Assembly: GCA_964252525.1 (NCBI GenBank)
Contig: CAXUNZ010000005.1
Location: 1 to 44,241 of the forward strand
From: an uncultured Acetobacteraceae bacterium
GTDB lineage: Bacteria > Pseudomonadota > Alphaproteobacteria > Acetobacterales > Acetobacteraceae
Length of the DNA stretch: 44,241 nucleotides
Reading direction: 5' to 3'
Under the pieces are notes generated by a model. The model made no database searches, was not told where the DNA came from, and saw only the letters and a program-made list of their open reading frames with translations. Made by a program: the position numbers and the translations under genes. Of the stretch, positions 2,220 to 43,192 are shown piece after piece (position 1 is the stretch's first letter; every line of letters starts with the position of its first letter).

Positions 2220-2658
2220 TTAGAAATGATGGGGTTCTGGGGGGAATGGCTAGTCACCGGGTACGGCGGGTGGCAATCCCAAAGGCGACGAGATGAAGCG
2301 CGAGCAGAACGCAAAGGCCACCAGGTACGACCTGTTCAGCAGGACGGCCCCATGTGAAACTGTAAGAGGTATCCTCTCCCCAAGCGTTTACTTTTTTTTG
2401 CGTCGAACCAACGACCCTCCGGTGTCTGGCTGTCCTTCGCCACCCTTGACTATGCGTGCAGCGCCGGTTACATACTTGTGAAAGAGCGATGGCCCACATC
2501 AGGCTGTCTATCAGCGTCGAAGCACTTCCCTGTTGGGCGTGTATGCCAATATGGCTGTTCTAGATACAGCGCCCAGCAAGGATAACCGCTGATCCTAAAG
2601 AAAATGCCGTGCACTCCGTGGGTCCAGTTAAATTAAGAAAGAGATTAGATCACCAGAA

Positions 2659-3480
2659 ATGGCTCCTGCTACCAAGTCATTAAACGCCGCTGGCGCAAGC
2701 GTGAAGTCCGCGGCACGCGTTTTGTCAATTTTTGAGTATTTTGAGAAAACGCGGGTGTCACGCACGCTCTCCGAGATATCGCAAGATCTGAATTACCCGG
2801 TTTCAAGCACGCTTGCGTTACTGCGCAGCGTGCAAGCAATGGGCTATCTCAATTACGACCACGGAGCAAAGTCTTACTCGCCTAGTATACGCTTTGCATT
2901 ACTGGGGCAGTGGATACATGATCGCCTGTTCGAGCGCGGACCCATCAAGCACATGATGGAACATATCTCCACATTGACGCGCGAAACGGTCCTGCTCGGC
3001 ATCCAAAATGGCTTTCACTCTCAACATATTCATATCATCGAGACGTCCCAGCCGCTAAGATATCACCCTTTAGTCGGGACGTTAAGGCCGCTGCTGCGTT
3101 CGTCAGTGGGCCGTGTGCTCCTCTCCCGCCAGCCGCGGGCGACAGTGCTGAAGATCATCGAACGTATCAGCGCGCTGCACATCGATGAGGGTCGCATCTT
3201 CAATCCATCCGACGTGTTTAGCGATTTGGAGCTGGTGAGGAAGCAAGGATTTGCGTTTTCAGCAAACCTGTTCGAGCCGGGCGCCGCAATCGTGACCGTT
3301 GCGCTACCCGCAGGAGTCGGCGACATCCCGATGGCGATTTCAGTCGGCGGCCCGGCTAACCGCGTCACTGAAGAAAACGTGCATGCCCTTGTTGACCAGA
3401 TCAACGGCGCCATCGGGGAATTCTTTCCTGACGGTGGCCACGGGGCGCAGCAAAGCGAGAAGGCTGCGGTCGAGCGCTGA
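2659..3480 (+). CDS. IclR-family transcriptional regulator
   Basis: N-terminal HTH SVKSAARVLSIFEYF..TLSEISQDLNYPVSST..LL, then IclR effector domain (ETVLLG, G..RPL.RSSVGRVLLS, AISVGGP..R); 273 aa. Confidence 0.93.
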   Translation: MAPATKSLNAAGASVKSAARVLSIFEYFEKTRVSRTLSEISQDLNYPVSSTLALLRSVQAMGYLNYDHGAKSYSPSIRFALLGQWIHDRLFERGPIKHMMEHISTLTRETVLLGIQNGFHSQHIHIIETSQPLRYHPLVGTLRPLLRSSVGRVLLSRQPRATVLKIIERISALHIDEGRIFNPSDVFSDLELVRKQGFAFSANLFEPGAAIVTVALPAGVGDIPMAISVGGPANRVTEENVHALVDQINGAIGEFFPDGGHGAQQSEKAAVER

Positions 3481-3531
3481 CTGACCCCGCAACGTGGATG
3501 CGGGCCTCCGTAACGCTTGCCGCGGGAGTTA

Positions 3532-3604
3532 CTTTCCACATGTATGGAAAGCGTTTTCATGTGGGAGAAGCTACATTGACGAGGTTCATGTCCGTGGGTA
3601 GGGT
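3532..3604 (+). promoter_or_regulatory. Tandem operator-like palindromes plus putative sigma70 promoter for the ThDP/ACAD operon
   Basis: CTTTCCA-CATGTA-TGGAAAG (3532-3551); second site TTTCATGTGGGAGAAG (3555-3570); TTGACG (3576) + 17 bp + TAGGGT (3599). Confidence 0.6.
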
Positions 3605-3680
3605 GGATTGTGGCCGGAACTCATACCTCAGGCATTAAGGCCTATGAACTGTGGCACCGCCAGTGATGCAGGAGAAGATA

Positions 3681-5405
3681 ATGCTGCAGTCAGCACCCCC
3701 GGACAGCAACTCGGCCGCGGAGCGGACGGGCGGGCAGCTGCTCGTTGATTGTCTCCTCGCGCATGGCGTGGATACCGTCTTTTGTGTTCCAGGCGAGAGC
3801 TTCCTTTCGGTTCTGGATGCGCTCTACGACGTGCGGGACCGCGTACAAGTCATCGTCGGGCGACATGAGGCAAGCGTTGCCAACATGGCCGAGGCTTACG
3901 GCAAATTGACGGGTAAACCCGGCATTTGCTTTGTGACCCGGGGGCCCGGCGCTACACATGCATCGATTGCGCTGCATACGGCAGCACAAGACTCAACCCC
4001 GCTAATCCTGTTTGTCGGGCAGGTTACCCGCAATCAGCTTGGCCGCGAGGCCTTCCAGGAAATGAATTATCGTGACCTATTCGGCAAGGTCACGAAATGG
4101 GTGGCCGAGGTCACCGACCCGCAACGTTTGCCCGAACTTATCGGACGGGCGTTCCATACCTCTGTGAATGGACGCGCGGGCCCCGTCGTCGTCTCGATCC
4201 CAGAGGATATGCAAGACGAGATGTGCACCGCTCCCACACCCGCGCGTTACATGCGTGCCTCATCCGCCCCGAGCGTCACAGCACTCGCAGAGCTGCGGGA
4301 CTTACTTGACCGTTCGGAACGCCCCCTTATCATACTCGGTGGCAGCGGTTGGTCGCCAGAAAGCGTGACCGACATCCAACGCTTTGCTGAGACCTTCGCC
4401 CTGCCGGTCGCAGCCGGATTCCGCCGTCAGGACCTGTTCGACAACAAGCATCCCCACTATGCCGGCGTGCTTGGATTAGGCACCAATCCCAAACTGGTCG
4501 ACATGGTCGGCCGCTCGGACCTTTTGCTGGTCGTCGGTGAACGCCTCGGCGACATGACCACCGGCGGGTACACGCTGGTCGAGTTTCCAAGGTCCCGCCA
4601 GCGTCTCATCCACGTCCATGCCGGCGCCGAAGAACTCGGCTTGCTGTATGAGGCAGACCTGCTGATCAATGCGACCGCGTGCGACTTCGCTCAGGCTGTC
4701 GCCGCGCTCCGCCCGCTTAGAACGGTTAAGCGCTCGGCTTGGATCGCAGAGGGCCACGCAAACTACGAAAGCTTTTCCGTGCCGCCGGCCAAGGGGCAGC
4801 CGCGGATTAACGTTGCGGAAATTATTCATTACCTGAGCGACAAGCTTCCTGCCAACGCCATCATCACCAACGGTGCCGGCCTCTACACGGCCTACGTTCA
4901 TCGCTATTACCAATTCCGCAGTTATGGGACCCAGCTTGCCCCAACCAGCGGAGCAATGGGTTACGGATTGCCCGCGGCGCTTGCCGCCAAAATTGTCCAT
5001 CCCGATCGTCCCGTAATCTGCTTTGCCGGGGACGGGTGTTTTCTGATGGCCTCGCAAGAACTGGCGACAGCCGTCAGGCATCAGGTTGCCATAATTATCG
5101 TGGTTATCGACAATGCCAGTTATGGTTCTATCAGAGCCCACCAGGAACGGTATTATCCTGGGCGCGTGGTTGCGACAGATCTTGTGGGTCCGGATCTTGT
5201 GGCATTCGCCAAATCGTACGGAATCTACGCCGAGAAGATCGAGGCGACTGAGGATTTTGCCGGCGCCTTCGACCGTGCGGCTGCCTCGGGCCTGCCCGCG
5301 CTGCTAACCTTCAAGCAGGACGTGACCGAAGCCATAGCGAGCCTGATCGGCAAGCCGCAATCCGCGCCGGTGCCGGCGGCACACGATCGCCATTTGGTGG
5401 ATTGA
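3681..5405 (+). CDS. ThDP-binding protein, acetolactate synthase large subunit-like
   Basis: RTGGQLL..FCVPGESFL, catalytic RHE, FVTRGPG, AFQE, GAMGYG, ThDP motif GDGCFLM..DN. Start moved to ATG 3681 behind AGGAG. Confidence 0.9.
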   Translation: MLQSAPPDSNSAAERTGGQLLVDCLLAHGVDTVFCVPGESFLSVLDALYDVRDRVQVIVGRHEASVANMAEAYGKLTGKPGICFVTRGPGATHASIALHTAAQDSTPLILFVGQVTRNQLGREAFQEMNYRDLFGKVTKWVAEVTDPQRLPELIGRAFHTSVNGRAGPVVVSIPEDMQDEMCTAPTPARYMRASSAPSVTALAELRDLLDRSERPLIILGGSGWSPESVTDIQRFAETFALPVAAGFRRQDLFDNKHPHYAGVLGLGTNPKLVDMVGRSDLLLVVGERLGDMTTGGYTLVEFPRSRQRLIHVHAGAEELGLLYEADLLINATACDFAQAVAALRPLRTVKRSAWIAEGHANYESFSVPPAKGQPRINVAEIIHYLSDKLPANAIITNGAGLYTAYVHRYYQFRSYGTQLAPTSGAMGYGLPAALAAKIVHPDRPVICFAGDGCFLMASQELATAVRHQVAIIIVVIDNASYGSIRAHQERYYPGRVVATDLVGPDLVAFAKSYGIYAEKIEATEDFAGAFDRAAASGLPALLTFKQDVTEAIASLIGKPQSAPVPAAHDRHLVD

Positions 5406-5516
5406 GGCGCTTGCCCGCCATTTACCAAAGCCGACTTTTCGGCGGCGATTTGATTGCGGAGCTTTGAAAGAAATACGCTGCGGGACGGTTAGGCCCAAGC
5501 AGTGCAGGGAGGGATT

Positions 5517-6659
5517 ATGAACATCAACCTGGCTCTGAAGGATCCGGCGTGGGCGGAACGCGCCGTGCGATCGATCCAGGAGATCGCCTCGGACCATCGC
5601 GAGGAGGTTGCGGCGTGCCATCGCGACGCAAGATTTCCAAAGGACGCCTTCGAGGAGATGGGGCGGCGTGGACTGCTTGGGGTCATTACGCCAGCGGAGT
5701 TCGGGGGTTATGGTGGGGACGCGCCTGAGTATTGTCTAACCACCGAAGCGATGGCGCGTTACAACCTGGTTTCGTCGCAAATTCAGATACAGGGGCAGCG
5801 CTGGCTGGTGGACTGGGGCACGCCCGGTCAGAAGGAGCGCTACCTTCCTGGTCTTGTGGCCGGAACAATCATTTTTTCCGAATCAATCTCCGAGCGGGGG
5901 GCCGCATCGTCGTTGAAGCAGCTAAAGGCGAGCGCGCGGCGCTCGGCTGGCGACTGGATTATAAACGGCGACAAGATACACATCAATTTGGGAAAGGAAT
6001 CCGACGTTACCTTGGTCTATGCAATGGCAGAGCAAGGTCTGACCGCATTCCTGTTGGACACGCATCTGCCCGGCGTCAGCAGGGAGCACAGCAACCCGAT
6101 CGGAGGGCGCCTGCTGCCGACGGCCGACATGTATTTCGACAATGTCCGCGTTCCCGATGCCGCTGTCCTCGGCGCGCCGGGTCAGGGACTTGCGACGTTC
6201 CTGAGTACGTTCAACGTCAGTCGGCTTGGCAACGCCTCCGAACTCCTGGGCGCGGCGCAGCGTGGATTGAGTGATGCGCTCGATTACGCGCGCCAGCGGG
6301 AGGTGGGCGGCAGCTTCGTCACGGACTTCCAAGGGCTGCAATGGCAGATAGCGGACGGCTACGCACTGCTGTACTCGGCATCGCTGGTGCGCGATAGGGC
6401 AGCCAACCTCGTGGCTGAAGGCAAGGAACACGCCTTCGAGGCGAGCCTAGCCAAGAAATTAGCCATCGATGCAGCGGAAAAGGTCATCAACGACGTTTTT
6501 TCCCTAGTCGGAGGGCACGGCCTATACCACGTCCAACCGTTTGGCCAATTGCTGTTCGACATAAAGACGCTGCGCGTGGGCGGTGGATCGATGGAGATTT
6601 TGCGCAACTACATGGCCCAGCAGATACTGAAGAGCGGCAGCTTTAGGGGTTTGAAATGA
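5517..6659 (+). CDS. Acyl-CoA dehydrogenase-fold flavoprotein (canonical catalytic Glu absent)
   Basis: GLLGV..P.EFGG, GT..QKERYLP, ISE..A.S, W.ING.K, FDNVRVP, YARQRE..G...DFQGLQW.IAD. Start ATG 5517 after GGAGGG. Confidence 0.9.
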   Translation: MNINLALKDPAWAERAVRSIQEIASDHREEVAACHRDARFPKDAFEEMGRRGLLGVITPAEFGGYGGDAPEYCLTTEAMARYNLVSSQIQIQGQRWLVDWGTPGQKERYLPGLVAGTIIFSESISERGAASSLKQLKASARRSAGDWIINGDKIHINLGKESDVTLVYAMAEQGLTAFLLDTHLPGVSREHSNPIGGRLLPTADMYFDNVRVPDAAVLGAPGQGLATFLSTFNVSRLGNASELLGAAQRGLSDALDYARQREVGGSFVTDFQGLQWQIADGYALLYSASLVRDRAANLVAEGKEHAFEASLAKKLAIDAAEKVINDVFSLVGGHGLYHVQPFGQLLFDIKTLRVGGGSMEILRNYMAQQILKSGSFRGLK

Positions 6660-8140
6660 ATAACGTCGCAGGGCTTATCCGTGATGCCGCCCGTTCCAAT
6701 CCTGCTGCAGCCCTTGGAACCTTCCAGCAATACGACTCTCTCGAGCAAGCCGTGGCGCGGGCTCGCGAGGCCGCCGATCGCCTGCGAGCTGCTGGTTTGG
6801 CGCGGGGAGACATTGTTGCCATCATCGGCAGCAATTGCGCATCCTATCTGATTACATGGATGGGCGCACAGATTGCCGGCCTGCAAACCGCGCTGATCAA
6901 TCCTACCTATCCGGATGAATTCCTGGCCGGTATGCTGGATGATCTAAGGCCGCAGGCGATAGTCTGGCTCCTCAGGCGTCCCGGCCTGCTTGCCGATCGC
7001 GAAATTATCCAGATCGACGCAACCTTTGCCTGGGACGGCCGGATCGTCCTGATGCAGCAAACAGGGCGCGTTTCCGCCGGGACCGGTGTAGGCGAAGACT
7101 GCTCCATGGACGAAATCGCCGCTTACATCCACACGTCCGGCACGACGGGAAACCCCAAATTCTGCGCGCTGAGCCACGGCTACTTCGCACGGCTGGGGCG
7201 GTATTTCGCAGACACCATGTCCCTGTCCCGCCACGACGTGGTGATCAATCCCCTGCCGCTGTTTCACATCAATCCAATCGGTAACGGCCTCGTTGGCTCG
7301 CTCACGGCAAGCGCGGGATTTCTTTCGACCGAGAGGTTCTCGACTGCGGACTTCTGGCCGATGGTCAAACTGCATGGCGCAACCGCACTGATCCTGCACG
7401 GCGCACCAGCCGGAATGCTGAAGGCCAGGACAACGCGCGAAGATGCACGTGGCCACAAAGTCAAGATCGGGTTCTTTTGTGATCCCGCCTTCCTGGAGCA
7501 ATTCGACGTGCCGATCGGCATTGGCGGCTACGGTTCGACCGAGGCGGGGGGCTATTGCCACAGCTGGAAATTTCGGCCGAAAGATCAGGATTTACCAGCC
7601 GAAGGCGCCACCCACCTTTCCGGGCAGCCCAGGTTCGATATGGAGTGCAGCCTTGCCGAGGACGGGGAAATCCTCGTGCGAGGCAAGGAGGCTTGTGTGC
7701 TGTTCTCGGGATACATGAAGGGTGGGAGCATCGATCCGCACCTTGATGGGAGCGGCTGGTTCCACACTGGAGACCGGGGCCGGTTTGACGAATATGGTCG
7801 CCTGGTATTTATCGAAAGGACAAGCGAGTCCATACGGGTCAACGGCGAGTACGTGCCAATCGATTTTCTCGAGGATCGTCTCAAGCGCGCCAGATCTTTG
7901 GGCGATTTCGCACTTTGGCGGGAGGATTCGCCGGCTCGCGGGCACGAAGCAGTCATCTACACGACGTCTGAAACTGCGGACGGCGACGAGCTGCGGAGCC
8001 TGGTTGCGGATCTGCCGAGATACATGCATCCCGCCAAGCTCATCCGCATTGCGGCGATCCCACGCGATGCCGGGGTCGGCAAGGTGCAGCGCCGGCTGCT
8101 TTCGGCGCAACCAGCACTGGACGTAAGGCTGCTACGATGA
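6656..8140 (+). CDS. AMP-forming acyl-CoA ligase (CaiC-like ANL adenylation enzyme)
   Basis: HTSGTTGNPK, PLPLFH, GYGSTE, GEILVRG, GWFHTGD, C-terminal GKVQR; ATGA overlap with the upstream gene. Confidence 0.9.
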   Translation: MNNVAGLIRDAARSNPAAALGTFQQYDSLEQAVARAREAADRLRAAGLARGDIVAIIGSNCASYLITWMGAQIAGLQTALINPTYPDEFLAGMLDDLRPQAIVWLLRRPGLLADREIIQIDATFAWDGRIVLMQQTGRVSAGTGVGEDCSMDEIAAYIHTSGTTGNPKFCALSHGYFARLGRYFADTMSLSRHDVVINPLPLFHINPIGNGLVGSLTASAGFLSTERFSTADFWPMVKLHGATALILHGAPAGMLKARTTREDARGHKVKIGFFCDPAFLEQFDVPIGIGGYGSTEAGGYCHSWKFRPKDQDLPAEGATHLSGQPRFDMECSLAEDGEILVRGKEACVLFSGYMKGGSIDPHLDGSGWFHTGDRGRFDEYGRLVFIERTSESIRVNGEYVPIDFLEDRLKRARSLGDFALWREDSPARGHEAVIYTTSETADGDELRSLVADLPRYMHPAKLIRIAAIPRDAGVGKVQRRLLSAQPALDVRLLR

Positions 8141-8901
8141 GCGAAGTTTACCTTGACCGAAGCGGGTACGTGGCTATCGTCGAAATCCGCCGCGGCCCGG
8201 ATAATTTCATAGACGAGCGCTCGCTTGGCGAGCTCGCAAGCGCCTTCGAGGCGTGCGATTCGGAACCCGAGATCCGGTGCATCGTGTTATGCAGCGAGGG
8301 CAAGAATTTTTGCGCCGGCGTCAATTTCGCCAGCACGGCTGGCGATCCGACCAGCGAGATAAGCGGTGCAGCCATCTACCGTCAGGCGTTACGGCTGTTC
8401 CGTTGCGTCACGCCCGTTGTGGCCGTGATACAGGGGGCGGCCGTCGGCGCGGGATTGGGCCTCTCGCTGGTGGCCGATTTCCGACTCGGTTCGCCACAAA
8501 CGCGGTTTACCGCCAATTTCAACAGGCTTGGGATCCATCCCGGTTTCGGACTGTCGGTGACATTGCCCAGGATTGTCGGTGCACAGCATGCCGCCATGCT
8601 GTTTTACTCAGGCCGCAGGGTTGGCGGAGAGGAGGCCTATGCAATCGGACTGCTCGACCAATTGGCGCCGCACTCCGAGTTGCGCGCCGCCGCTCTTGCT
8701 TTGGCTGTAGAGATCGCCCAGTCTGCGCCGATAGCGGTTGTCTCCACCCGTCGCACGTTGCGCCGTGGTCTGGCTGACAGCGTCTCCGCGGCGCTTGACC
8801 GTGAACTGGCCGAACAGGAGGCGCATTTCCGTACGGAGGATTTCAAGGAAGGCGTTAAGGCAATGAAGGAGCGGCGCGCACCGGTGTTTGCGAGTCGTTG
8901 A
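8137..8901 (+). CDS. Enoyl-CoA hydratase/isomerase (crotonase) family protein, non-canonical active site
   Basis: NFCAGVNF, P.VAVIQGAAVGAG, RLGIHPGFG, TEDFKEGV.A..ERR.P.F; ATGA overlap. Confidence 0.92.
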   Translation: MSEVYLDRSGYVAIVEIRRGPDNFIDERSLGELASAFEACDSEPEIRCIVLCSEGKNFCAGVNFASTAGDPTSEISGAAIYRQALRLFRCVTPVVAVIQGAAVGAGLGLSLVADFRLGSPQTRFTANFNRLGIHPGFGLSVTLPRIVGAQHAAMLFYSGRRVGGEEAYAIGLLDQLAPHSELRAAALALAVEIAQSAPIAVVSTRRTLRRGLADSVSAALDRELAEQEAHFRTEDFKEGVKAMKERRAPVFASR

Positions 8902-9041: not shown

Positions 9042-10007
9042 CTACCGCGCGCTGGCTTCCGAGAGCGCATTCTTCTGGCGCTCATCAAGCCTCAGCCGCG
9101 CGAAATTCTTGATTTCTTCGAATTGTTCGACGCTGGTGACAGCGGCGATCGGGGCAGTCACCCCAGCCTGCGCCGTCAACCACGCCAGAGCGATTTCAGC
9201 CGGCGCCGCACCTTGCTCCAGCGCCACATCTTGCAGGACCGCAAGGATGCGGGCGCCACGATCGTTCAGATACCGCCGCATGACCAATTCGGTAAGGTCC
9301 GGCCCCCAAAGATCGACTGGTATATCCGCTTCGCTCCGATACTTGCCGGTCAGGTAACCCTTGGCCAGTGTGCTGTAGCAAAGTACACCGACATCGTTGC
9401 TTATGCAGGCGGCCTGCACGGCACCTTCATATTCAAAGCGGTCGCAAAGATTATAGCGTGGCTGAAACGTCTCGTAGCGTGCAAGGCCTCCGGACTGGCT
9501 GGCGTCCAGCGCAGTGCCGAGACGCCCCGGATCGTAATGCGAGGCGCCGATCGTCCGTACCTTGCCCAACCTCACCAACTCGTCCAAAGCGCCCAGCGTT
9601 TCCTCCAGCGGCACATCAGGGTCGTCGTGATGTGCCTGGTAGAGATCGATGTAATCGGTTTGCAGACGGGCCAGTGAGCCGTCGACCGATTTCTTAATGT
9701 GCGCTGCCGACAGGCCCTTGCCCACGTTCGGCATCGAGGCCCCGAATTTTGTTGCAAGCACGACGCTATGCCGTGCGCCGCGAGACTTCAGCCATTGACC
9801 GATGATCATCTCCGATTCGCCGCCAACATGGTCCGGCACCCAGCAGGAGTAGACGTCAGCAGTGTCGATGGCATCAAAGCCTGCCGAAATGAATGCATCC
9901 AGAATTTTAAACGATGTTCTGGTATCGGCGGTCCACCCAAAGACATTCCCGCCGAGGACAAGAGGCGCAATAGTGATGTCGGAGCGGCCCAATTTTCGCT
10001 TGTCCAC
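9042..10007 (-). CDS. Aldo/keto reductase (paralogue 1)
   Basis: RKLGRS..LVLGGNVFGW, IDTADVY, ATK, SLARLQTDYIDLYQAH, IGAS, QPRYNL; the D/Y/K/H tetrad is present. Confidence 0.93.
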   Translation of the reverse strand: MDKRKLGRSDITIAPLVLGGNVFGWTADTRTSFKILDAFISAGFDAIDTADVYSCWVPDHVGGESEMIIGQWLKSRGARHSVVLATKFGASMPNVGKGLSAAHIKKSVDGSLARLQTDYIDLYQAHHDDPDVPLEETLGALDELVRLGKVRTIGASHYDPGRLGTALDASQSGGLARYETFQPRYNLCDRFEYEGAVQAACISNDVGVLCYSTLAKGYLTGKYRSEADIPVDLWGPDLTELVMRRYLNDRGARILAVLQDVALEQGAAPAEIALAWLTAQAGVTAPIAAVTSVEQFEEIKNFARLRLDERQKNALSEASAR

Positions 10008-10625: not shown

Positions 10626-10674
10626 CAATTTCCCCTATTGGATGTGCGCGTGGCGCAGTGGTGATATCGAGCGG

Positions 10675-13234: not shown

Positions 13235-13271
13235 ATTCACGCACTGGGAAGAGTCTTTCACGTATGCGAAA
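13235..13271. promoter_or_regulatory. Operator-like palindromes upstream of the TonB-dependent receptor
   Basis: TTTCACGTATGCGAAA (13256-13271) and a weaker ATTCACGCACTGGGAA 21 bp to the left; the motif recurs across the island. Confidence 0.6.
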
Positions 13272-14078: not shown

Positions 14079-14129
14079 TTAGGCGCCGCGGCAATTGCCT
14101 CTGCTGTCAGCGGCTGGTGAAAAGCTAGA

Positions 14130-15368: not shown

Positions 15369-15437
15369 CGATCGTCTCCTTACCTGCTCACCCTGAGATA
15401 CGGCATATGCGACCAACTCACGGCTCAATCGACGAGG

Positions 15438-17226: not shown

Positions 17227-17332
17227 TGGGAATCTTCCTCTTTTGATACAGGGCGCCACATATGGAACGAGGGTCGGGCTGGTTATCTAAACGGTCACGT
17301 GTCATGTTCCGCGCCCATCCTTGTAAAAGCTT

Positions 17333-17369: not shown

Positions 17370-17383
17370 TAACACGGCGGAAC

Positions 17384-31155: not shown

Positions 31156-31162
31156 CGCCTAC

Positions 31163-32418: not shown

Positions 32419-32434
32419 TCTCACGTATGTGCAT
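32419..32434. promoter_or_regulatory. Operator-like site in divergent promoter region
   Basis: TCTCACGTATGTGCAT, just 3' of TTGACA (32409); same motif as at 13256 and 21389. Confidence 0.55.
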
Positions 32435-33346: not shown

Positions 33347-33347
33347 C

Positions 33348-35388: not shown

Positions 35389-36287
35389 GCATTTTGCTGG
35401 ATCGCTCAGTCCGGGTCGTGATGCTGGGCATAACCGGTCGCCTGGGGGTCTTCTCGGCCAAGGACCTGATCGAATACGGCACCACACTCGTCGCGGGTGT
35501 ATCGCCCGGCCGGGGCGGCACGATCGTCGAGGGCGTACCCGTCTTTGGCACCACGGCCGATGCGGTCCGCGAGACCGCGGCCGATGCGGCCATCGTCTAT
35601 GTGCCGGCGCCTTTGGCGCTGGACGCCGTGCTCGAGACCTTCGATCTCGGGCTTCGCCTCGTGGCCTACCCCGGTGACGGCCTGCCTGTCGCTGATGCAA
35701 TGCAGATGCGGGCAGCGGCCCGCGCGAACGGCGCGTGGATGGTTGGGCCCAATTCGCCGGGCATCATCTCTCCGGGCCAGGCCAAGCTCGGTTTCATGCC
35801 CAGCTATTGCTTCACGCCCGGTCCGGTGGGCGTCATCTCCCGCAGTGGTTCTCTGTCCTACGAGGCGGCATACCGGCTCTCTGCGGCCGGGCTCGGGCAA
35901 TCCAGCGTCGTCGGCATCGGCGGTGACCCGGTCAAGGGCGTGCGGGCAGGTGAGGCCGTGGAGATGTTCCACGCCGATCCTGCTACCGCCGCCATCGTCT
36001 ATCTGGGAGAGATCGGCGGGGCAGACGAGTATGCCGTTGCCGACTACGCGTCTCGGCCGGGTGCCAAGCCGGTGGCCGCCTTGCTGGTGGGGCGCACGGC
36101 GCCGCCCGGCAAGAAGATGGGCCACGCCGCCGCCCTGATCGGATCGGCGGCCGATACATGGGCCTCCAAGGTCGACGCCATGGAGAGGTCGGGTATCGAT
36201 GTCGCGCGCAGCATCGGTGCGCTTGTCGAAGCGACGCGGACCGCGCTGGCCCGCGCCTCGTCCGCACCGCTTGTAACGGTCGGTTGA
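35385..36287 (+). CDS. sucD: Succinyl-CoA synthetase alpha-subunit-like
   Basis: MSILL, GITGR, GT..VAGVSPG.GG, GPNSPGIISPG, ISRSGSLSYE, GQS..VGIGGDP, GEIGG, phospho-His motif KKMGHA. Confidence 0.9.
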   Translation: MSILLDRSVRVVMLGITGRLGVFSAKDLIEYGTTLVAGVSPGRGGTIVEGVPVFGTTADAVRETAADAAIVYVPAPLALDAVLETFDLGLRLVAYPGDGLPVADAMQMRAAARANGAWMVGPNSPGIISPGQAKLGFMPSYCFTPGPVGVISRSGSLSYEAAYRLSAAGLGQSSVVGIGGDPVKGVRAGEAVEMFHADPATAAIVYLGEIGGADEYAVADYASRPGAKPVAALLVGRTAPPGKKMGHAAALIGSAADTWASKVDAMERSGIDVARSIGALVEATRTALARASSAPLVTVG

Positions 36288-36315: not shown

Positions 36316-37977
36316 ATGCACGCAGACCCGTCCAAGCTCATGAAAGTGCACCAGGCAGTTGCGCGCGCGCTCGCCGATAATGGGGTGGACACGATATTCG
36401 GCGTCATGGGTGACGCCAACATGTTCGCCATGCACAGCTTCGTGCATGATTGCGGTGGCATTTTCGTATCGGCATCTCACGAAGTCGGCGCAGCCCTGAT
36501 GGCGCTTGGCTACGCCACCCTCTCGGGCAAGGCCGGTGTATGTTCGGTCACGCACGGTCCCGGCTTGACAAATACCGTTACGGCACTTGTCGAGGGCGTG
36601 AAAGGATCGGTGCCGATGGTCATCGTTTGCGGCGACACGGCGCTCCTCGATCGGGAAAACAACCAGAACGTCGCTCAACGCGATATCGTCATCGCAACTG
36701 GAGCAGGATTCGAACAGCTCCGCTCACCGCAAACAGCGAGCCAGGACGTGGCCATGGCGCTGCGTAGGGCAATGACCGAACGCCGTCCAATTGCACTGAA
36801 CATGCCCAGCGAGCTGGACTGGAGCCCTGTTGACTACCAGCCCGTGATCGTTCGCCTTCCGGTGGATCGGGCTGTGGTGTTGGCCAGCGAAGACTTGGAC
36901 AACGCGATCGGCATGATGGCCGCGGCGCGGCGCCCAGTCATCCTCGCCGGGCGCGGCGCGGCTTGCGCCGCGGCCAAATGTGCCATTCTGAAACTCGCCC
37001 GGCGCATCGAGGCGCCGCTCACCACCACGCTGAAAGCCAAGGATCTCTTTGATGGCGAAGATTACAACCTTGGCATTTGCGGCACTGTCAGCACGCAAGC
37101 GGCTGTCGAGACGATCATGGAGAGCGACTGCCTGATTTCATTTGGCGCCAGCCTGAATTACCGCACCACTTCGAAAGGCGCATTCCTCAGAGGAAAACGC
37201 GTCATCCAGGTCAATCTCGAGCAGTCGGAAATTGGCAAGAACGTCCAACCCGATGTCGGCCTGGTTGGAGATCCGGCGGCCGTGGCGGACCTCATGACCC
37301 ATTGGCTGGATGAGGCGGAGATCCCACCATCGAGTTGGTACTCGGACGAGTTGAAGGAGCGGATTGCGTCGGCGCGTCCGGACATCGACCAACAGGACGA
37401 TTATGACAACGGCACGGTCAATTACCTGAGTACCCTGCTGCGCATTGGCGCGTTCCTGCCGCAAGACCGCATACTCGTGACCGATGGCGGCCGGTTCATG
37501 CTACGAACATGGCCGCTGCTGCGCGCTTCACCTGGGCGTTCGTTCATCGCGCCGGTCAATTTTGGATCGATCGGGCTCGGTCTATCGCACGCCATTGGCG
37601 CAGCCTACGCCGGGCGCGGGCGTCCCGTCGTGCTCGTTACGGGAGACGGCGGATTCATGAATGGCGGTCTGGCCGAATTCAACACCGCGGTGAGAGGCAA
37701 ATTGGACCTGATCGTAATCATATGCAACGACAATGCCTACGGCGCCGAAGTCGTCAAGTTCAACGACAGATATCCCGGTGACAAGATGGACCCGGGAATG
37801 ATTACGTTTGATTGGCCGGATTTCGCACCAGTTGCTATCGCCTTGGGTGGCAATGGCGTCACGATCAGGTCTGCAAACGACCTTGTTTCGGCCGAACAGG
37901 CGATAAGCCAACGCAACGGTCCGTTGCTAATCGACATCAAGGTTGATCCCTACCGGATGGCCATGTCACTGGGCTGA
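36316..37977 (+). CDS. ThDP-dependent enzyme, ALS-like 'GDANM' subgroup (paralogue 1)
   Basis: GVDTIFGVMGDANMF, SHE, VTHGPG.TN, GSIGLG, TGDGGFM..NDNAYGAE. Confidence 0.9.
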   Translation: MHADPSKLMKVHQAVARALADNGVDTIFGVMGDANMFAMHSFVHDCGGIFVSASHEVGAALMALGYATLSGKAGVCSVTHGPGLTNTVTALVEGVKGSVPMVIVCGDTALLDRENNQNVAQRDIVIATGAGFEQLRSPQTASQDVAMALRRAMTERRPIALNMPSELDWSPVDYQPVIVRLPVDRAVVLASEDLDNAIGMMAAARRPVILAGRGAACAAAKCAILKLARRIEAPLTTTLKAKDLFDGEDYNLGICGTVSTQAAVETIMESDCLISFGASLNYRTTSKGAFLRGKRVIQVNLEQSEIGKNVQPDVGLVGDPAAVADLMTHWLDEAEIPPSSWYSDELKERIASARPDIDQQDDYDNGTVNYLSTLLRIGAFLPQDRILVTDGGRFMLRTWPLLRASPGRSFIAPVNFGSIGLGLSHAIGAAYAGRGRPVVLVTGDGGFMNGGLAEFNTAVRGKLDLIVIICNDNAYGAEVVKFNDRYPGDKMDPGMITFDWPDFAPVAIALGGNGVTIRSANDLVSAEQAISQRNGPLLIDIKVDPYRMAMSLG

Positions 37978-38051: not shown

Positions 38052-39305
38052 ATGGCTGAGACAAGACAGGCGGGAATCATTTCGGCAACATGGTTCTTCA
38101 TGCTCGTAAACAATCTCGGATCGAGCACGATGGGCTTTGCCGGGCCATCAATCATGAAGTCGCTGTCGATGACTCCTGGCAGCTTCGGGATTGTCCTGTC
38201 GTCGTTCGGGGTCGGTTATCTGCTGGCGCAGATACCCGGGGGACTGCTCGCCGATCGATGGGGCGCCAAGCCGCTTCTCGTCATCGGCCCGATCCTGTGG
38301 GCCTTGCTGACTGGTGCGACCGGACTTGTGGCAACGACGACCGGGTTCGTCACCGTGCGAGTCCTCTTCGGAGCTTCCGAAGGTCTCGCCGGAACCTCCA
38401 CCTTCAAGACCGTCGGCGAGAACTTCAGTTCAAAGCAGCGTGGCCGGGCGATGGCCATCTGCTCGACGGCCATTGCGGCAGCGCCGGCCTTCGGTGGCGC
38501 ACTCGTCAGCAAACTGGTGGACGGGTGGGGCTGGCGCACGATGTTTGTCATCATGATGGGACCGGCCGTGCTCGCGGCATTGATCAATTTCTTCCTGATA
38601 CCTGCAGATCGCCCGACCAGGAGCACCGTCCTGGCCGCAGGGTCCCCACAAAAGGATGCCTCGTTCAGTGAAGCGCTCCGCCGCCCCAGCTTCTGGCTTC
38701 TCGCAGTCGGACAGTTCTGCATCGGCACCGCTTACTGGGGCTATCGCGGCTGGATGCCAAGCTATCTGGCATTGACGCGCCACATCGACCTGAAATCTCT
38801 GGGATTGCTCAGCAGCACGCCGTACGTTTTCGCCTTCTTCGGCATGTTGCTGGCCGGATGGCTGGATGGAAAAGTGCTGTACCGGCATCGTCCTCAGTCG
38901 CTCGCCTGCTCCTGTCTTCTCGCAGGGTTGTTTCTTTTCCTGGCCTACCGGGCCGAAACCGTGCCCCTTTCCCTGGTTGGATTGTGCGGGACGGCGCTCT
39001 TTCTTTACGGCAACACCGGGCCGCTCACGGCATTCATGCTCGAGTTGGCGCCCGAAAAATCCCGTGCAGCCTATGTGGGGGGTGTGTTGACCGTGGGCTT
39101 GCTGGCGGGGATCATTGCACCGTTGTTGATCGGCTACCTTGTTTCCAGGACAGGTACCTTCGCCAGCGGTTTCGAACTCATGATCGCTGCGCTGTGCGTG
39201 ACCGCCGCTTGCATGCTTGTGCTCACCCGTTTCGTGCCCGCCATGCACACGCCGGAATTGGCGTATGCAGAGCCCACGGTCGCGGCCAAAGCCTTGCCGC
39301 CGTAA
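38052..39305 (+). CDS. MFS transporter, ACS-like (paralogue 2)
   Basis: FAGPSIMKSL, QIPGGLLADRWG, RVLFG.SEG, WMPSYL.L.RHI; collinear with 14130-15368; GGGGAG RBS. Confidence 0.9.
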   Translation: MAETRQAGIISATWFFMLVNNLGSSTMGFAGPSIMKSLSMTPGSFGIVLSSFGVGYLLAQIPGGLLADRWGAKPLLVIGPILWALLTGATGLVATTTGFVTVRVLFGASEGLAGTSTFKTVGENFSSKQRGRAMAICSTAIAAAPAFGGALVSKLVDGWGWRTMFVIMMGPAVLAALINFFLIPADRPTRSTVLAAGSPQKDASFSEALRRPSFWLLAVGQFCIGTAYWGYRGWMPSYLALTRHIDLKSLGLLSSTPYVFAFFGMLLAGWLDGKVLYRHRPQSLACSCLLAGLFLFLAYRAETVPLSLVGLCGTALFLYGNTGPLTAFMLELAPEKSRAAYVGGVLTVGLLAGIIAPLLIGYLVSRTGTFASGFELMIAALCVTAACMLVLTRFVPAMHTPELAYAEPTVAAKALPP

Positions 39306-39308
39306 CGT

Positions 39309-40727
39309 TCAGGAAGATTGCAGCTCGTCGATCTGAAACCCCAGGCGGCCGGCCCGCATGCGGATGCGCAACCCACGATGCCTCGCCAGGTATCGGATGA
39401 AAACGATTGCCGCAGCTAGACCCGACGCGGCAGCGATGCTCATGGCCCAACGCGGCCCGAACCTGTCTGCAACCCATCCGATGACCGGCGCGCCGATCGG
39501 CGTCCCGCCGCTGACCATCGCACTGCGGAAGGTGATGACACGGCCCCGCATCTGTGGCGCCGTGGACAGTTGCATCAAGCTGTTCGTAGCGTTTGTGAAC
39601 GTCAGCGCAGACGAACCAACGACAATGAGTGCCAAGCCAAACAGCCAGAAATTCGGCATGAGTGCCGCACACCCGCACGCCAACCCGAAGAACGCGGCGC
39701 CCGACAGCAGCTGCCCGACCTGAGGTCTGTCCCGCCTGGCGGAGAATAGGGCTCCGGCAACCGTTCCGATGGCGACGAAAGACATCAGGAGCCCATACCT
39801 GCTCGCCCCGGCATGGAACACGGTCACTGACATCGTGGATATGAAGATCGGAATGTTCAATCCGAACGTACCGATCAGGAAAAGCATGAGCAGGATTGCC
39901 TTGAGGTCCGGCCGCGCCCGGACGTAACGCACGCCCGCGGCAAAACCTGCCTGGATGCCGCTGTCTTTGTTCTGACGGTGTAATTCACCCACGCGAAGGC
40001 AGTATAGGGAGCACAAGACGGCGGCGAAGGAGATGGCGTTGACCAGGAACGCCCATCCGCAGCCCGCAGCGCCGATCATAGTGCCTGCTATGGCCGGGCC
40101 AACCATTCGCGCGACGTTGAACGATGTTGAATTGAGCGCAATTGCGTTGGGCAGATCGGCGTCACCAACCAGTTCGGAGACAAAGGTTTGGCGAAGCGGC
40201 GTGTCGAACGCCGTAACACAGCCGAGCAATGCCGCCGCGACGAAGACGTGCCATATCGTGACGAAGCCGCCGACCGTCAACACGCCCAATGCCAGGGCCA
40301 ATATTCCCAGTGCGGCCTGGGTTGCCATCAGCAGCTTTCGCTTATCGAAATTATCGGCCGCAGAACCGACCAACGGCAGGAAGACGAATTGCGGGGCAAA
40401 CTGCAAGGCCATGACCCACCCCAAGGTGGTCGCGTTGTGATGGGTCAATACGGTGAGAACCAGCCAATCCTGCGCGATGCGCTGCATCCACGTGCCGACA
40501 TTCGATACGATCGCACCTCCGGCCCAGACGCGGTAGTTGAAGACCTTGAGTGAGCGGAAGGCGCCTGCGTCGGGTTTCAAGTCCGGACTGCCGGCGATGT
40601 CGACAAATTGGCTGCGCGGATTTTTCGACTTAATTGATGACGGGGGCGCTGGGGGGGGGGCAGGCACTGCTCCCCCACTCCTTTCTGAGTGTGTTTTTGT
40701 GTGGGTTGGCAGGCGTTCAGGATTCAC
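39309..40727 (-). CDS. MFS transporter (DHA3/MFS_3-like)
   Basis: FRSL..FNYR.W.GG.IVSNVGTWMQR.AQDWLVL, AFD.P.RQ.FV.ELV, NA.ALNS.SFN.AR..GPA.AG, MRGRV. The true start may be about 40580. Confidence 0.9.
   Translation of the reverse strand: MNPERLPTHTKTHSERSGGAVPAPPPAPPSSIKSKNPRSQFVDIAGSPDLKPDAGAFRSLKVFNYRVWAGGAIVSNVGTWMQRIAQDWLVLTVLTHHNATTLGWVMALQFAPQFVFLPLVGSAADNFDKRKLLMATQAALGILALALGVLTVGGFVTIWHVFVAAALLGCVTAFDTPLRQTFVSELVGDADLPNAIALNSTSFNVARMVGPAIAGTMIGAAGCGWAFLVNAISFAAVLCSLYCLRVGELHRQNKDSGIQAGFAAGVRYVRARPDLKAILLMLFLIGTFGLNIPIFISTMSVTVFHAGASRYGLLMSFVAIGTVAGALFSARRDRPQVGQLLSGAAFFGLACGCAALMPNFWLFGLALIVVGSSALTFTNATNSLMQLSTAPQMRGRVITFRSAMVSGGTPIGAPVIGWVADRFGPRWAMSIAAASGLAAAIVFIRYLARHRGLRIRMRAGRLGFQIDELQSS
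40641..40680. repeat. REP-like hairpin unit with G10 tract
   Basis: CGGGGGCGCTGGGGGGGGGGCAGGCACTGCTCCCCCACTC; core CAGGCACTGCTCC is shared with 8921 and 27606. Confidence 0.55.
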
Positions 40728-41169
40728 CCAGTCGTTTAATCAACGCGATGGCCGCCTGGAGGGTCTGCTGTTCATCCGGACTGAGCTTTGCAATCGCCGT
40801 CGAGAGCCATTCCCGCTTTGCGTCGCTGCGCCGTCGTCTTGCCTCGATCCCCTCGGGCGTCAACGCAAACAGAATTTGCCGTCCATCTGTGGGGTGGGGA
40901 CGGCGCTGAACAAATCCATCCTGCTCTAGGCTGGCAAGAATCGTGCCCATGGATTGAGGTTTCATCGACTCCGCCCGTGCGAGATCGGAAGTTGTCATCC
41001 ACTGTCCCTTCTCAAGCCGTGCCAATGTTCCAAGCTGAGAAAGGTTGAGTTCGGTGGGCGTTGCCGCCGAGCGGAGCCGTCTTCGAAGCTGTCCGATCGC
41101 AAGCGAAAGATCGGTCACGATGGTTTGCAGTGTATCCGCTGCATCGGTGGTCGTCGTATGGTCCGTCAT
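40717..41169 (-). CDS. MarR-family transcriptional regulator
   Basis: L.LSQL..LARL, T.SDLARAE.MKPQSM..ILA.LE..G.V.R.PHPTDGRQ...ALT..G; 150 aa. Confidence 0.93.
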   Translation of the reverse strand: MTDHTTTTDAADTLQTIVTDLSLAIGQLRRRLRSAATPTELNLSQLGTLARLEKGQWMTTSDLARAESMKPQSMGTILASLEQDGFVQRRPHPTDGRQILFALTPEGIEARRRRSDAKREWLSTAIAKLSPDEQQTLQAAIALIKRLGES

Positions 41170-41212
41170 GCTCGGCGATCCGAATGCCTTATCAACAATT
41201 TGGCCACGAGGA

Positions 41213-42871
41213 TCAGTGCGCGCCCAACATGCGGTCCGGATCGAGCTTGACGTCTATTAGTAACGGGCGGCTGCGGGAGCTGATCGCCTTTTCGGCCGCA
41301 TCGAAGTCCCTATCCGACCTGATCGTCACGCCATGTCCCCCCAAAGCCACCGCAACGGGCGCGAAGTCGGGCCAGTCGAAGGCAATCATGCCGCCTGCCA
41401 TCTTCCTGTCCGGATATTTGTTGGCGAACTTGGAGACTTCGGCACCGTAGGCGGAGTTGTTGCAGACGACCACGATCAGGTCCAGGCGGTAACGTACGGC
41501 CGTGTTGAACTCGGTCAGCCCCCCATGCATGAAGCCCCCATCGCCTGTGACCAATACGACAGGCCGGCGGGGCGCAGCGATTGCGGCACCAATGGCGTGC
41601 GAGAGCCCAAGGCCGATCGAGCCCAAGTCGATAGCCGAAATAAATGATGGGGGTCCGGAGGTCGTCATCATCGTCCAGGCCTCACGCATGAAACGGCCCC
41701 CGTCGGTGACGACAATCCGGTCCGCCGGCAGGAGCTGGTCCAGGCGAAATAGCGAACCTTTGTAATCGACGGTTCCATTGTCATGCCCGAGCGAGCCACC
41801 TGCCTGGTAAATGTCTCGCGCGATCTTTTGCATGAGCTCTTCGGTGTAAGCGCCGGAGGACGGTATTTCTGCCTCGTTCAGCCAATTCTCGATGATGCCG
41901 GCCATGCCGCCAGGGTCGCCCACCACGGCCGCATCGGGCTGAATGGTCTTTCCCAGCTCGGAGGGCTCCTGGTTGACCTGCACCAGCCGCTTGCCCTTGA
42001 GGAACGTACCATTTGATGTCGTGTATTTGTTGAGGCTGGCACCAAATGAAATGACGCAGTCGCTTTCCAGAATGATCTCAACGGCGGCTGGTGTGCTCGC
42101 GGTGCCAAAGACGCCCAGGTTGAAATCCTCGCCACGGAAAAGGTCCTTGGCCTTGAGCGTTGTCGCCAGCGGTGCCTCGATGCGTTTGGCCAGGCTTACG
42201 ACTGCGGCGCGCGCCGCGGCTGAGGCCGCTCCACGCCCAGCAAGGACGACCGGGCGCCTGGCGGCGGCGATGAGGCCAATGGCATTGTCCAGCTCATCGC
42301 TGACCGAAACGACGGCACGGCTTTCAGGAAATCGCAGGCGAATGGGCTGGTAGCTGACCTCGGTCCAATCGAACTCGATGGGCACGTTGAGGGCGATCGG
42401 CCGACGTTCTGCGTGGGCTCTGCGCAACGCGGAGGTGACGTCCTGCACAACGGTCTTGGACGAGCGGACCTGCTCGAAACCCGCGCCGGCGGCAATGACG
42501 AATTCACGTTGGGAGACGTTTTGCGCGTGGCCGCTATCGACCACCGGCGTATCGCCGCAGAGCAGGACCATGGGCGCGGATGCCTTCACGCCCTGGACTA
42601 ATGCGGTCACGGTATTGACCATCGCCGGGCCATGAGTAACGCTGCATAATCCCACTTTCCCACAGGCGGCCGAGTAGCCCAGGGCCATCAGCGCCGAACC
42701 ATATTCGTGCGAGGCGGCCACGAACGCTCCGCCGCAATCGTGGACGAAGCTATCGGCCATGAACATGTTTGCGTCGCCAACCAAGCCGAAGATCGTGTCG
42801 CAGCCATTATCGAAAAGCGTGCGGGCGATGGCCTGGTGAAATTTCATGTTCGCGTTTGCTGGCGTCAGCAT
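41213..42871 (-). CDS. ThDP-dependent enzyme, ALS-like 'GDANM' subgroup (paralogue 2)
   Basis: DTIFGLVGDANMF, SHE, VTHGP, GSIGLGLSHAIGA, TGDGGFM..NNSAYGAE; collinear with 36316-37977. Start moved to ATG 42871 behind GGGAG. Confidence 0.9.
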   Translation of the reverse strand: MLTPANANMKFHQAIARTLFDNGCDTIFGLVGDANMFMADSFVHDCGGAFVAASHEYGSALMALGYSAACGKVGLCSVTHGPAMVNTVTALVQGVKASAPMVLLCGDTPVVDSGHAQNVSQREFVIAAGAGFEQVRSSKTVVQDVTSALRRAHAERRPIALNVPIEFDWTEVSYQPIRLRFPESRAVVSVSDELDNAIGLIAAARRPVVLAGRGAASAAARAAVVSLAKRIEAPLATTLKAKDLFRGEDFNLGVFGTASTPAAVEIILESDCVISFGASLNKYTTSNGTFLKGKRLVQVNQEPSELGKTIQPDAAVVGDPGGMAGIIENWLNEAEIPSSGAYTEELMQKIARDIYQAGGSLGHDNGTVDYKGSLFRLDQLLPADRIVVTDGGRFMREAWTMMTTSGPPSFISAIDLGSIGLGLSHAIGAAIAAPRRPVVLVTGDGGFMHGGLTEFNTAVRYRLDLIVVVCNNSAYGAEVSKFANKYPDRKMAGGMIAFDWPDFAPVAVALGGHGVTIRSDRDFDAAEKAISSRSRPLLIDVKLDPDRMLGAH

Positions 42872-42895
42872 TACTAAAACTCCCAGGTTTGTCGC

Positions 42896-42921
42896 AATGC
42901 TTGAAGTGACAGGCAAGCATT
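42896..42921. promoter_or_regulatory. Palindrome upstream of the ThDP2-marR-MFS operon (candidate operator)
   Basis: AATGCTTG-N10-CAAGCATT, about 25 bp upstream of the start codon. Confidence 0.45.
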
Positions 42922-43192
42922 AATACGAGTTTTGCCCTGCACTTGAGGGCGTAATCAAAGTGCGGAATGCTCGCAACCTCGCGAGGGCAATGCCTCGCCG
43001 GATGCGGTTACGATGATCCTTCACCGCCAATCAAACAGGCTGAGTTGAAGCCTGCAACCCAACTTGGAACGCTATCTGGTCAGGTTTCCTTCATTGTGCG
43101 GCGCCCCATAAAGCCGGCACATAGTTCCTGTCAAGGCTAATCAGATGGATGTTAGCTGTAGTTCGAACCAGTCAGTTAGCTTTATTGAGCAA

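Follow-up and report, generated by a model that had tools for sequence, protein, structure and literature searches.

A window of 44,241 nt, the entire contig CAXUNZ010000005.1 (here C5) of an uncultured Acetobacteraceae bacterium (assembly GCA_964252525.1; 3.72 Mb, 399 contigs, 93% complete), carries 33 intact catabolic, transport and regulator genes between positions 2659 and 42916. They contain a real, conserved and apparently undescribed gene cluster, catabolic and detoxifying, which is narrower than the 41-kb island that a first reading of the sequence (the original prediction) had proposed. Its core, about 26 genes that reappear in other orders in further alphaproteobacteria and as a smaller set in actinobacteria, is likely an IclR/MarR-controlled system for the import, inactivation and digestion of one class of toxic, oxygen-rich ring compound. 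Shared neighbourhoods in two phyla and a conserved operator tie together at least six protein subfamilies that have no characterised close relative: two bicupin clades, the thiamine diphosphate (ThDP) enzymes thdp1 and thdp2/3, an acyl-CoA dehydrogenase (ACAD) and a crotonase that both lack catalytic Glu, and a 402-aa MaoC protein.

Gene content

Genes were taken from an open reading frame (ORF) listing together with Pfam and NCBIfam scans of 44 ORFs, and assignments below rest on such family scans unless another basis is named. The 33 genes agree with the roughly 30 intact enzyme, transport and regulator genes predicted, and no housekeeping gene lies among them, as had been claimed. Their order is iclR; thdp1-acad-acs-ech1; tbdr-ysh1-akr1; duf1932-amh-mfs1; hcdh; cupB-cupA-hpcH; ysh3, cupC, ysh2-akr2-ior; fdx; maoC-caiB1-caiB2; ech2-hmgl-sucC-sucD-thdp2-mfs2; thdp3-marR-mfs3. 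The predicted paralogue redundancy is also borne out: there are three cupins (cupA and cupB 71% identical, cupC 27% to both), three YecD-like hydrolases (50-56% identical to one another), two aldo-keto reductases (AKRs; 54%), two major facilitator superfamily (MFS) transporters of the anion:cation symporter type (54%), and four ThDP enzymes (thdp2 and thdp3, 65% identical, plus thdp1 and the indolepyruvate:ferredoxin oxidoreductase family enzyme, IOR). None of the 44 ORFs belongs to a Rieske, P450, flavin oxygenase or thiolase family, again as predicted. A [2Fe-2S] ferredoxin gene at 28458-28778 had been omitted.

Most cluster genes have no close paralogue in the host genome, and a cluster look-up of four window proteins returned unnamed singletons. 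No known cluster fits by gene families, which upholds the claim of a conserved, apparently undescribed degradation cluster; literature searches, most subscription journals and supplements excepted, yielded no paper describing this gene set. The main text of PMC3333776 does not mention the cupin region of plasmid pRL11 under guessed locus-tag stems (supplements may differ), and nothing on the cupin motif was found in PMC3765361.

The core recurs in other genomes

A cupin profile retrieved 54 genome loci and 77 metagenome loci, extended for eight genomes, and a window gene was counted as recurring at 40% identity or above. One Caulobacteraceae genome (G061) holds 25 of the 33 genes within one 80-kb stretch and a second (G062) holds 26 across two contigs; Sphingomonas oligophenolica has 21 on one contig, Novosphingobium SG707 has 12, and five actinobacteria have 5-9 each. 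As a control, 31 loci of a distant cupin clade (528 kb) hold two. Gene order is different in every genome. The original prediction had named as fatal to it the case that the sub-operons never co-occur elsewhere, and the 25-26 genes recurring reshuffled in the two Caulobacteraceae show the opposite.

The tally covers 40 of the 72 cupA/B-type loci, those of 10 kb or more, several of which share a contig or genome and are hence non-independent: the neighbours are YecD (22), thdp2/3 (20), cupC (16) and marR (10), with AKR, fdx and IOR at six each. Many holder genomes retain two cupA/B copies. The smallest units, in which a YecD gene and a cupin gene are joined by MarR, an MFS exporter or both, are found on their own (L021, L025, L026, L031, L032), which points to a toxic substrate. 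Distribution is sparse: cupin matches occur in none of four same-genus genomes, in five of 300 family genomes and in eight of 400 class genomes, where all are weak and none is of the cupA/B type. Cultured holders of the core are Sphingomonas oligophenolica JCM 12082, Novosphingobium sp. SG707, Amycolatopsis pithecellobii RM579 and Ameyamaea chiangmaiensis NBRC 103196.

A palindromic operator

A palindrome close to TTTCAyAT-ATrTGAAA was first noticed post hoc, with five sites where 0.53 were expected. Operator-like copies precede iclR (2468..2483, 16.2 bits), thdp1 (3534..3549, the strongest at 20.4 bits), the receptor operon (13256..13271, 16.7 bits) and cupB-cupA-hpcH (21389..21404, 19.1 bits); another lies in the divergent duf1932/hcdh region (17354..17369, 13.2 bits), and a weak one between maoC and ech2 (32419..32434) scores 10.7 bits, near background, chance alone giving 2.7 hits per 44 kb at a threshold of 10 bits. 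A matrix made from 13 relatives' sites finds seven window hits of at least 12 bits, all intergenic, against 0.94 expected, and the site before thdp1 stands at −147, −150, −147 and −134 in four genomes. In a de novo search of 32 upstream regions from the window and its relatives a palindrome scored 382 against 224-237 for four shuffles and was present in 26 of the 32, a result to be read with the AT-richness of the motif, the use of four shuffles only and the inclusion of window regions in the training set. The shared operator of the original prediction thus stands as to the existence of the palindromic site, but only seven of the ten window regions searched have one and that of the MaoC block is weak. 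The IclR-family regulator (2659..3480, plus strand; 60-61% identical to its G061 and G062 orthologues) is the likely candidate for the protein that binds the palindrome.

A more obvious 25-bp repeat was rejected as an operator, being a genome-wide repetitive extragenic palindrome (REP)-like element with 170 matches. A sigma-70 promoter and terminator scan of 27.4-37 kb gave results at chance level.

An add-on block of seven genes

The prediction that the whole 41 kb is one pathway fails for seven genes, caiB2-caiB1-maoC and ech2-hmgl-sucC-sucD (28823-36287), which are those missing from the Caulobacteraceae clusters and are found elsewhere without cupins. On the minus strand lie caiB2 (28823..30016), a class III CoA transferase with an Asp at the catalytic position, caiB1 (30013..31155), a subunit without it, and maoC (31163..32371), encoding the 402-aa double MaoC (hot-dog) hydratase/dehydratase; on the plus strand are ech2 (32501..33346), a crotonase with both catalytic Glu, hmgl (33345..34274), a C-C lyase of the HMG-CoA lyase family (NF004283, 257 bits, cut-off 246), and a SucC/SucD-like ADP-forming CoA ligase (34222..36287; 32%/47% identical to the host's other SucCD). 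By alignment, as for ech2, caiB2 has the motif MDH and caiB1 lacks it, a pattern repeated in two plasmid orthologue pairs. No relative of the 402-aa MaoC was found in a PDB sequence search, and its structure prediction (predicted local distance difference test, pLDDT, 51) was not used.

Queries with MaoC and SucC, each run against five holder genomes, found paralogues of 24-35% identity but no orthologue. MaoC orthologues of 59-82% identity were found in two of 400 class and three of 300 family genomes and on plasmids of Agrobacterium, Salipiger, Cupriavidus and Qingshengfaniella; they are accompanied by the CaiB pair and in many cases by SucCD, a CitE-type lyase, a lactonase and a second, Ich-like MaoC. 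Genomes G105, G313 and G008, which carry the block, have no cupin match. The block travels separately from the cupin core and has been added to it in this genome.

We considered whether all 33 genes, the MaoC block included, serve a single pathway for a single family of natural products, the paralogues taking care of its congeners. This would suit the weak operator-like site between maoC and ech2, the start of thdp2-mfs2 on the same strand 29 nt after sucD, and the two cupA/B copies of many holders. Related clusters moreover carry interchangeable, functionally equivalent hydratase, lyase and ligase genes: LeuCD with ICL-family lyases (L016/L161), mesaconyl-CoA hydratase with CitE (L088), and CitE with an ADP-forming ligase in actinobacteria. 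Against it stand the five holder genomes without MaoC or SucC orthologues, the three block genomes without cupins, the near-background score of that operator-like site, the higher third-codon-position GC (GC3) of the block (0.73-0.80, against 0.63-0.73 in the left arm), and the ancient separation of the cupA/B and cupC clades. We regard it as improbable.

The block would instead form a branched-dicarboxylate route in which the SucCD-like ligase and the CaiB pair activate the acid, MaoC and ech2 move water, and a citramalyl- or HMG-type CoA ester is then cleaved to a keto acid and acetyl-CoA. In the itaconate/citramalate route (Ict or SucCD, Ich, Ccl) a CoA ligase or transferase, a hydratase and a CoA-ester lyase likewise act together, and succinyl-CoA synthetase (SucCD) can activate itaconate (PMC12290011). 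Because the orthologues of the block adjoin itaconyl-CoA-hydratase-like MaoC and CitE/RipC-type lyase genes, it likely works, by analogy, like the itaconate pathway. The original statement that no itaconate cluster matches holds for the genes themselves but not for that neighbourhood: the window has no Ich-like or CitE/RipC gene (an Ich query from L007 found no match in the host genome), and in place of Ich and CitE it has the crotonase with both Glu and the HMG-CoA-lyase-family enzyme, beside the uncharacterised 402-aa MaoC and a two-subunit CaiB.

The MaoC402-CaiB-CaiB(-SucCD) module (L007-L010, L174, L175, L204-L206) is itself a highly conserved orphan pathway: a listing of 120 clusters contains 119 others at 74-88% identity. 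Its companions include a lactonase, dehydrogenases, the Ich-like MaoC and the CitE lyase; in G105 it adjoins a Mo-hydroxylase and a hydantoinase-like amidohydrolase.

A proposed pathway

Gene content, co-occurrence, the conserved operator and the catalytic-residue patterns are observed directly, and from them we infer all catalytic steps. The explanation we favour, with slightly less than an even chance of being right, is that a toxic, oxygen-rich ring compound is imported and opened by CupA/B with O2, that YecD-like and lactonase enzymes hydrolyse the product, that ThDP enzymes and the HpcH aldolase cleave it and IOR funnels the pieces onward, and that the add-on block is able to split a branched dicarboxylate.

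Import would be the task of the TonB-dependent receptor (10675..13101, minus; 50-51% identity in G061 and G062) and of the two anion:cation symporter-type MFS proteins, mfs1 (14130..15428, minus) and mfs2 (38052..39305, plus). The MarR-family regulator (40717..41169, minus), with the MFS_3-type exporter mfs3 (39309..40727, minus; true start probably near 40560, after a REP copy), would limit toxicity.

Ring opening would fall to the bicupins cupA (19382..20272, minus; no Pfam family) and cupB (20346..21233, minus), which would use O2 at a His-His-Gln(-Tyr) metal site. The ferredoxin gene (28458..28778, plus; 61-62% identity in G061 and G062, and conserved in related alphaproteobacterial clusters) is an orphan whose product may keep the cupin metal reduced, and cupC (26643..27542, minus; weak Cupin_7 match, placed by tree) would perform a second, different step. 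R61, H62, H64, Q68 and Y99 (cupB numbering) are invariant in the cupin alignment, and 237 of 240 homologues have HxH-x3-Q. A quick tree of 59 rows separates CupA/B from CupC with full support (Shimodaira-Hasegawa-like approximate likelihood ratio 100), each clade spanning two phyla and the two found side by side in both; the proteins therefore likely have different jobs, contrary to the idea that all paralogues merely cover substrate variants. Genes beside the cupins across the family at large encode P450, GMC oxidase, aldehyde dehydrogenase, lactonase, GST or glutaredoxin-DinB, FAH hydrolase and HpcH/CitE lyase, which is how ring-cleavage routes are laid out.

An enol-ether, enol-ester or lactone bond would then be hydrolysed by the YecD-like isochorismatase-family enzymes ysh1 (10062..10628), ysh2 (25942..26514) and ysh3 (27733..28305) and by the LigI-like amidohydrolase of the lactonase family (15438..16349; E 1.5e-39), all on the minus strand. 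Aligned YecD-like proteins keep the Asp and Lys and have Gly or Ala at the position of the nucleophile Cys in the three window copies and four orthologues, so that the Asp-Lys-Cys triad of cysteine hydrolases (RutB, BiuH, nicotinamidase type) is absent from them; RutB and BiuH models score far below cut-off. The AKRs (akr1, 9042..10007; akr2, 24911..25945) and the DUF1932 NAD(P)-binding dehydrogenase (16375..17259), also on the minus strand, would adjust the carbonyl redox state.

The resulting 2-oxo and dicarbonyl acids would be split by the uncharacterised ThDP enzymes thdp2 (36316..37977, plus), a core gene, and its paralogue thdp3 (41213..42916, minus), by thdp1 (3651..5405, plus; uncharacterised PRK08199 subfamily, NF006052 785 bits, cut-off 539) and by the HpcH/HpaI-type class II pyruvate aldolase (18637..19389, minus). 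ThDP motifs are intact in the aligned window enzymes. IOR, a fused protein of 1168 aa (21391..24897, minus), would convert a 2-oxoacid to an acyl-CoA; it matches NF009588 and NF009589 over its full length at about 1510 bits (NF009588: 1510, cut-off 952), and like HMGL and PRK08199 passes its cut-off. The AMP-forming acyl-CoA synthetase (6656..8140, plus), the ACAD-fold protein (5502..6659, plus; orthologues 73-77%), the crotonase-fold ech1 (8137..8901, plus) and the 3-hydroxyacyl-CoA dehydrogenase family protein hcdh (17360..18610, plus) could process the CoA-bound fragment without a thiolase. The ACAD lacks the usual catalytic Glu positions, with YEG read as VGG, and ech1 lacks both catalytic Glu, as do four aligned orthologues.

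Pyranones, butenolides or tetronates, tropolones and substituted hydroquinones are all compatible as substrate classes. Patulin, pulvinic acids, tropolones, kojic acid or maltol, tulipalin, fusaric acid and benzoxazinoids, considered as single candidates, were set aside as unsupported beyond analogy.

Several observations weigh against this explanation, besides the non-independence of the tallied loci and the limits of the de novo motif given above. The strict consensus of the window palindrome is not enriched in relatives (1 site against 0.85 expected, 3 against 1.0 and 1 against 1.2; in further relatives 0 against 0.8 and 6 against 3.05; in actinobacteria 1 against 4.1), and the de novo search placed no site before fdx, ysh2 or thdp3-marR-mfs3. 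IOR was not found in the examined stretches of G061, G064, G066 and G069. A marR-YecD pair, 55-56% identical to the window copies, stands alone on host contig C203 (about 4609-6545, followed by a probable MFS gene), and the marR-YecD cassette may accordingly be generic. The position of the third metal His is held by Tyr, invariant in the alignment and found by pattern in 204 of 240 homologues (35 not parsed), the motif-2 position of Y99 being judged by sequence motif and not by coordinates. Cupin dioxygenases are not known to have Tyr at this position. The CupB model (pLDDT 94) is a bicupin whose Foldseek and other fold matches are all cupins, the top ones (Z 20.3-16.6; 7-14% identity) mixing oxygenases with hydrolases, isomerases and unknowns. 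The best is a ChrR-like bicupin (Z 20.3, root-mean-square deviation (rmsd) 2.9, 201 residues aligned); others are a putative dioxygenase, DUF861 proteins, ureidoglycine aminohydrolase, HEPD, pirins, AerE, BacB, quercetinase and salicylate dioxygenase. A PDB sequence search with the cupin profile found no relative at E below 0.95, and the ESM Atlas lists the cupins only as 'hypothetical protein' or Cupin_7 and the ThDP enzymes only in generic clusters.

The same residues could belong to bicupins that work without O2, as isomerases, tautomerases or hydrolases on 2-oxoacids in the manner of BacB, IolB and KduI, with thdp2/3 opening a cyclic 1,2-diketone as IolD or cyclohexanedione hydrolase do, all under the same conserved regulon. 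BacB, a bicupin with the metal motif H50, H52, Q56 and H91 and with bound phenylpyruvate (PMC2797259), shares HxH-x3-Q, and the Tyr at the third His fits this view. The fold search returned BacB, AerE, KduI and an IolB-like protein (Z 16.8-14.1); only YecD is found beside the cupin more often than thdp2/3 (20 of 40), and the G061 cluster is flanked by sugar-acid enzymes, namely 2-hydroxyacid and semialdehyde dehydrogenases and an L-arabinonate dehydratase that exceeds its cut-off. On Rhizobium and Cupriavidus plasmids, too, cupC-like genes are divergent from HpcH aldolases. We nevertheless think this, the main rival, unlikely: YecD-cupin cassettes without a ThDP gene (L021, L025, L031, L032) imply that the cupin does not need thdp2/3 in order to act, the PDB holds no close relative of thdp2 (best E 1e-41), and the conserved ferredoxin would be left without a role.

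A bolder proposal we put forward as doubtful: CupA/B would be a new His-His-Gln-Tyr class of ring-opening bicupin that forms, with the cysteine-less YecD, a MarR-controlled cassette inactivating a widespread natural antimicrobial, expanded by some bacteria into a thiolase-free pathway of ThDP lyases, IOR, Glu-less ACAD and Glu-less crotonase. Were it true, it would provide the first substrate for the YecD family and several new enzyme activities at once. Knowing the inducer of the cluster would likely show by what means soil bacteria disarm a toxic natural product and feed on it, and might give YecD-like proteins a function. As long as it lacks a substrate, the cluster is a well-supported lead of a familiar sort, an orphan catabolic cluster, and not a new kind of system.

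Comparison with known systems

The paa and box pathways are excluded by the lack of a ring epoxidase (PaaABCE, BoxAB) or thiolase family among the 44 ORFs, and PaaF (209 bits, cut-off 371), PaaG (172, cut-off 345) and PaaH (158, cut-off 669) are all below threshold. Of lig/pmd (protocatechuate 4,5-cleavage) the window has only the LigI-like amidohydrolase and DUF1932, and no LigAB or LigK family. For liu (leucine/isovalerate), marked by methylcrotonyl-CoA carboxylase and isovaleryl-CoA dehydrogenase next to HMG-CoA lyase, HMGL passes its subfamily cut-off, but the window has no biotin carboxylase and its ACAD lacks both usual catalytic Glu. With bbs/iaa, the substituted-succinate CoA routes, the window shares a class III CoA transferase of two subunits, only one of which has the catalytic Asp, whereas no thiolase and no glycyl-radical or Mo-hydroxylase entry enzyme is present in the window.

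Gentisate- and homogentisate-type routes combine a cupin dioxygenase, a thiol-dependent isomerase, an FAH hydrolase and IclR/MarR control. The window cluster resembles them in its bicupin fold (salicylate dioxygenase at Z 16.6, gentisate dioxygenase at Z 15.1), as do related loci in their FAH, GST or glutaredoxin-DinB and IclR/MarR neighbours, but Tyr replaces the third metal His, identity is 8-12%, the window has no FAH or isomerase, and the core consists of ThDP enzymes, IOR and YecD hydrolases instead. Ring-cleaving cupin dioxygenases generally (GDO, SDO, quercetinase, Dke1) share the fold, but the window cupins lack their three-His metal triad. With BacB and AerE the common points are HxH-x3-Q and the fold (Z 16.8, rmsd 3.3-3.5, about 195 residues aligned); those enzymes, however, are biosynthetic, bind metal in both domains and have a fourth His ligand, whereas the window cupins have Tyr there, the motif in the N-terminal domain only, 11-13% identity and a catabolic context.

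The myo-inositol iol pathway has a ThDP ring hydrolase (IolD), a bicupin (IolB) and an aldolase. These three kinds of enzyme also stand together here (IolB-like fold match at Z 14.1), but IolD is not among the PDB or top NCBIfam hits of thdp2, and the window has CoA enzymes and IOR and no iol dehydrogenase, dehydratase or kinase. The closest solved relatives of ysh1 are E. coli YecD and Burkholderia 3TXY (E 3e-29 and 5e-38), yet the ysh proteins remain below the YecD equivalog cut-off (110-140 against 195 bits) and are tied to a cupin in 22 of 40 loci. E. coli YecD has no assigned function (PMC4519933), and it figures in a table of vanillin-dependent protein changes (PMC6561319).

Boundaries, mobility and composition

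The first approximately 55 nt of the window match the ends of ten other contigs, and its limits may therefore be assembly breaks. Debris at the ends belongs to the insertion sequence (IS) families IS66 and IS5 on the left, with an IS66 transposase fragment (874..1446, plus; PF03050/PF13817) and an IS5-family 3' remnant (1852..2223, plus), and to IS3 on the right, as two integrase-core fragments (43172..44159, minus). Since the families at the two ends differ, being IS-bounded is no proof of a composite transposon. Matching IS copies or att sites at both ends together with an integrase were not found, the contig ends hiding the flanks, and a broken IS5-family element lies inside (13331..14082, plus; 95% identical to the left remnant); IS ends defining a mobile island, as predicted, are not supported. 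Between the IS66 and IS5 remnants, 1500-1850 resembles on reading a decayed transposition-helper gene on the minus strand.

GC content is 61.2% in the window and 64.6% in the genome. By tetranucleotides the left 10 kb alone is clearly foreign (99.4th percentile; the remainder lies at 51-83), so that the genomic-island traits of patchy distribution and atypical composition are both seen, the latter strongly only in those 10 kb. Three slightly decayed copies of the host REP-like repeat (8914-8939, 27601-27628 and 40655-40683; 170 genome-wide matches at up to two mismatches) suggest long residence of the cluster in the lineage. The region is acquired and long resident, and a transposon is not demonstrated. 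The REP-like element is a palindrome of about 45 bp, many of whose 170 matches stand at contig ends. Among the sequencing runs listed, one DNA run had a small share of the cluster and no RNA run had any; reads of the DNA run across 24-43.9 kb gave only short pieces.

These features invite a further reading, in which independent cassettes (MarR-YecD-exporter, IclR-acyl-CoA operon, IOR and MaoC block), each with its own inducer, were gathered in a mobile region. The two direct IS5 remnants bracket 2.2-13.3 kb and so lie on either side of the left 12 kb, the part most foreign in composition; gene order is never the same, the MaoC block is clearly independent, and a marR-YecD pair stands alone on C203. 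Yet for all the shuffling, Caulobacteraceae keep the same 25-26 orthologues together and Sphingomonas 21, several units share the operator, and a sample of 400 alphaproteobacterial genomes gave no member of the cupA/B clade (eight weaker matches only). We assign this reading a low probability.

Related clusters and the host genome

A distant clade of the same bicupin family (L035-L065, for example L039:8558-9787 and L043:5703-6569) marks a separate, tightly conserved cluster with P450 (25 of 32 loci), SDR (25), 3-hydroxyisobutyrate-dehydrogenase-like (24), FAH-like (22), old yellow enzyme (18) and IclR (11) genes and an ABC transporter, some families being read from sequence; it, too, looks undescribed. 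On Rhizobium pRL11 (L066), Cupriavidus pENH92 (L067) and at L203, the cupC-like genes divergent from an HpcH aldolase adjoin tartrate/threonate or FAH/GMC/aldehyde dehydrogenase genes. At L186 a 221-aa protein without a Pfam match (11521-12186, minus) precedes YecD-cupin-MFS, a minimal Ameyamaea-type cassette, near integrase-like genes.

The host is a versatile degrader. Its genome has many cytochrome P450 matches, at 17 places, several of which are two halves of one gene; a P450 on C200, 47% identical to that of the S. oligophenolica cluster, stands alone, and we claim no link. A second, distant 402-type MaoC lies on C2 and a CaiB-HMGL pair on C137.

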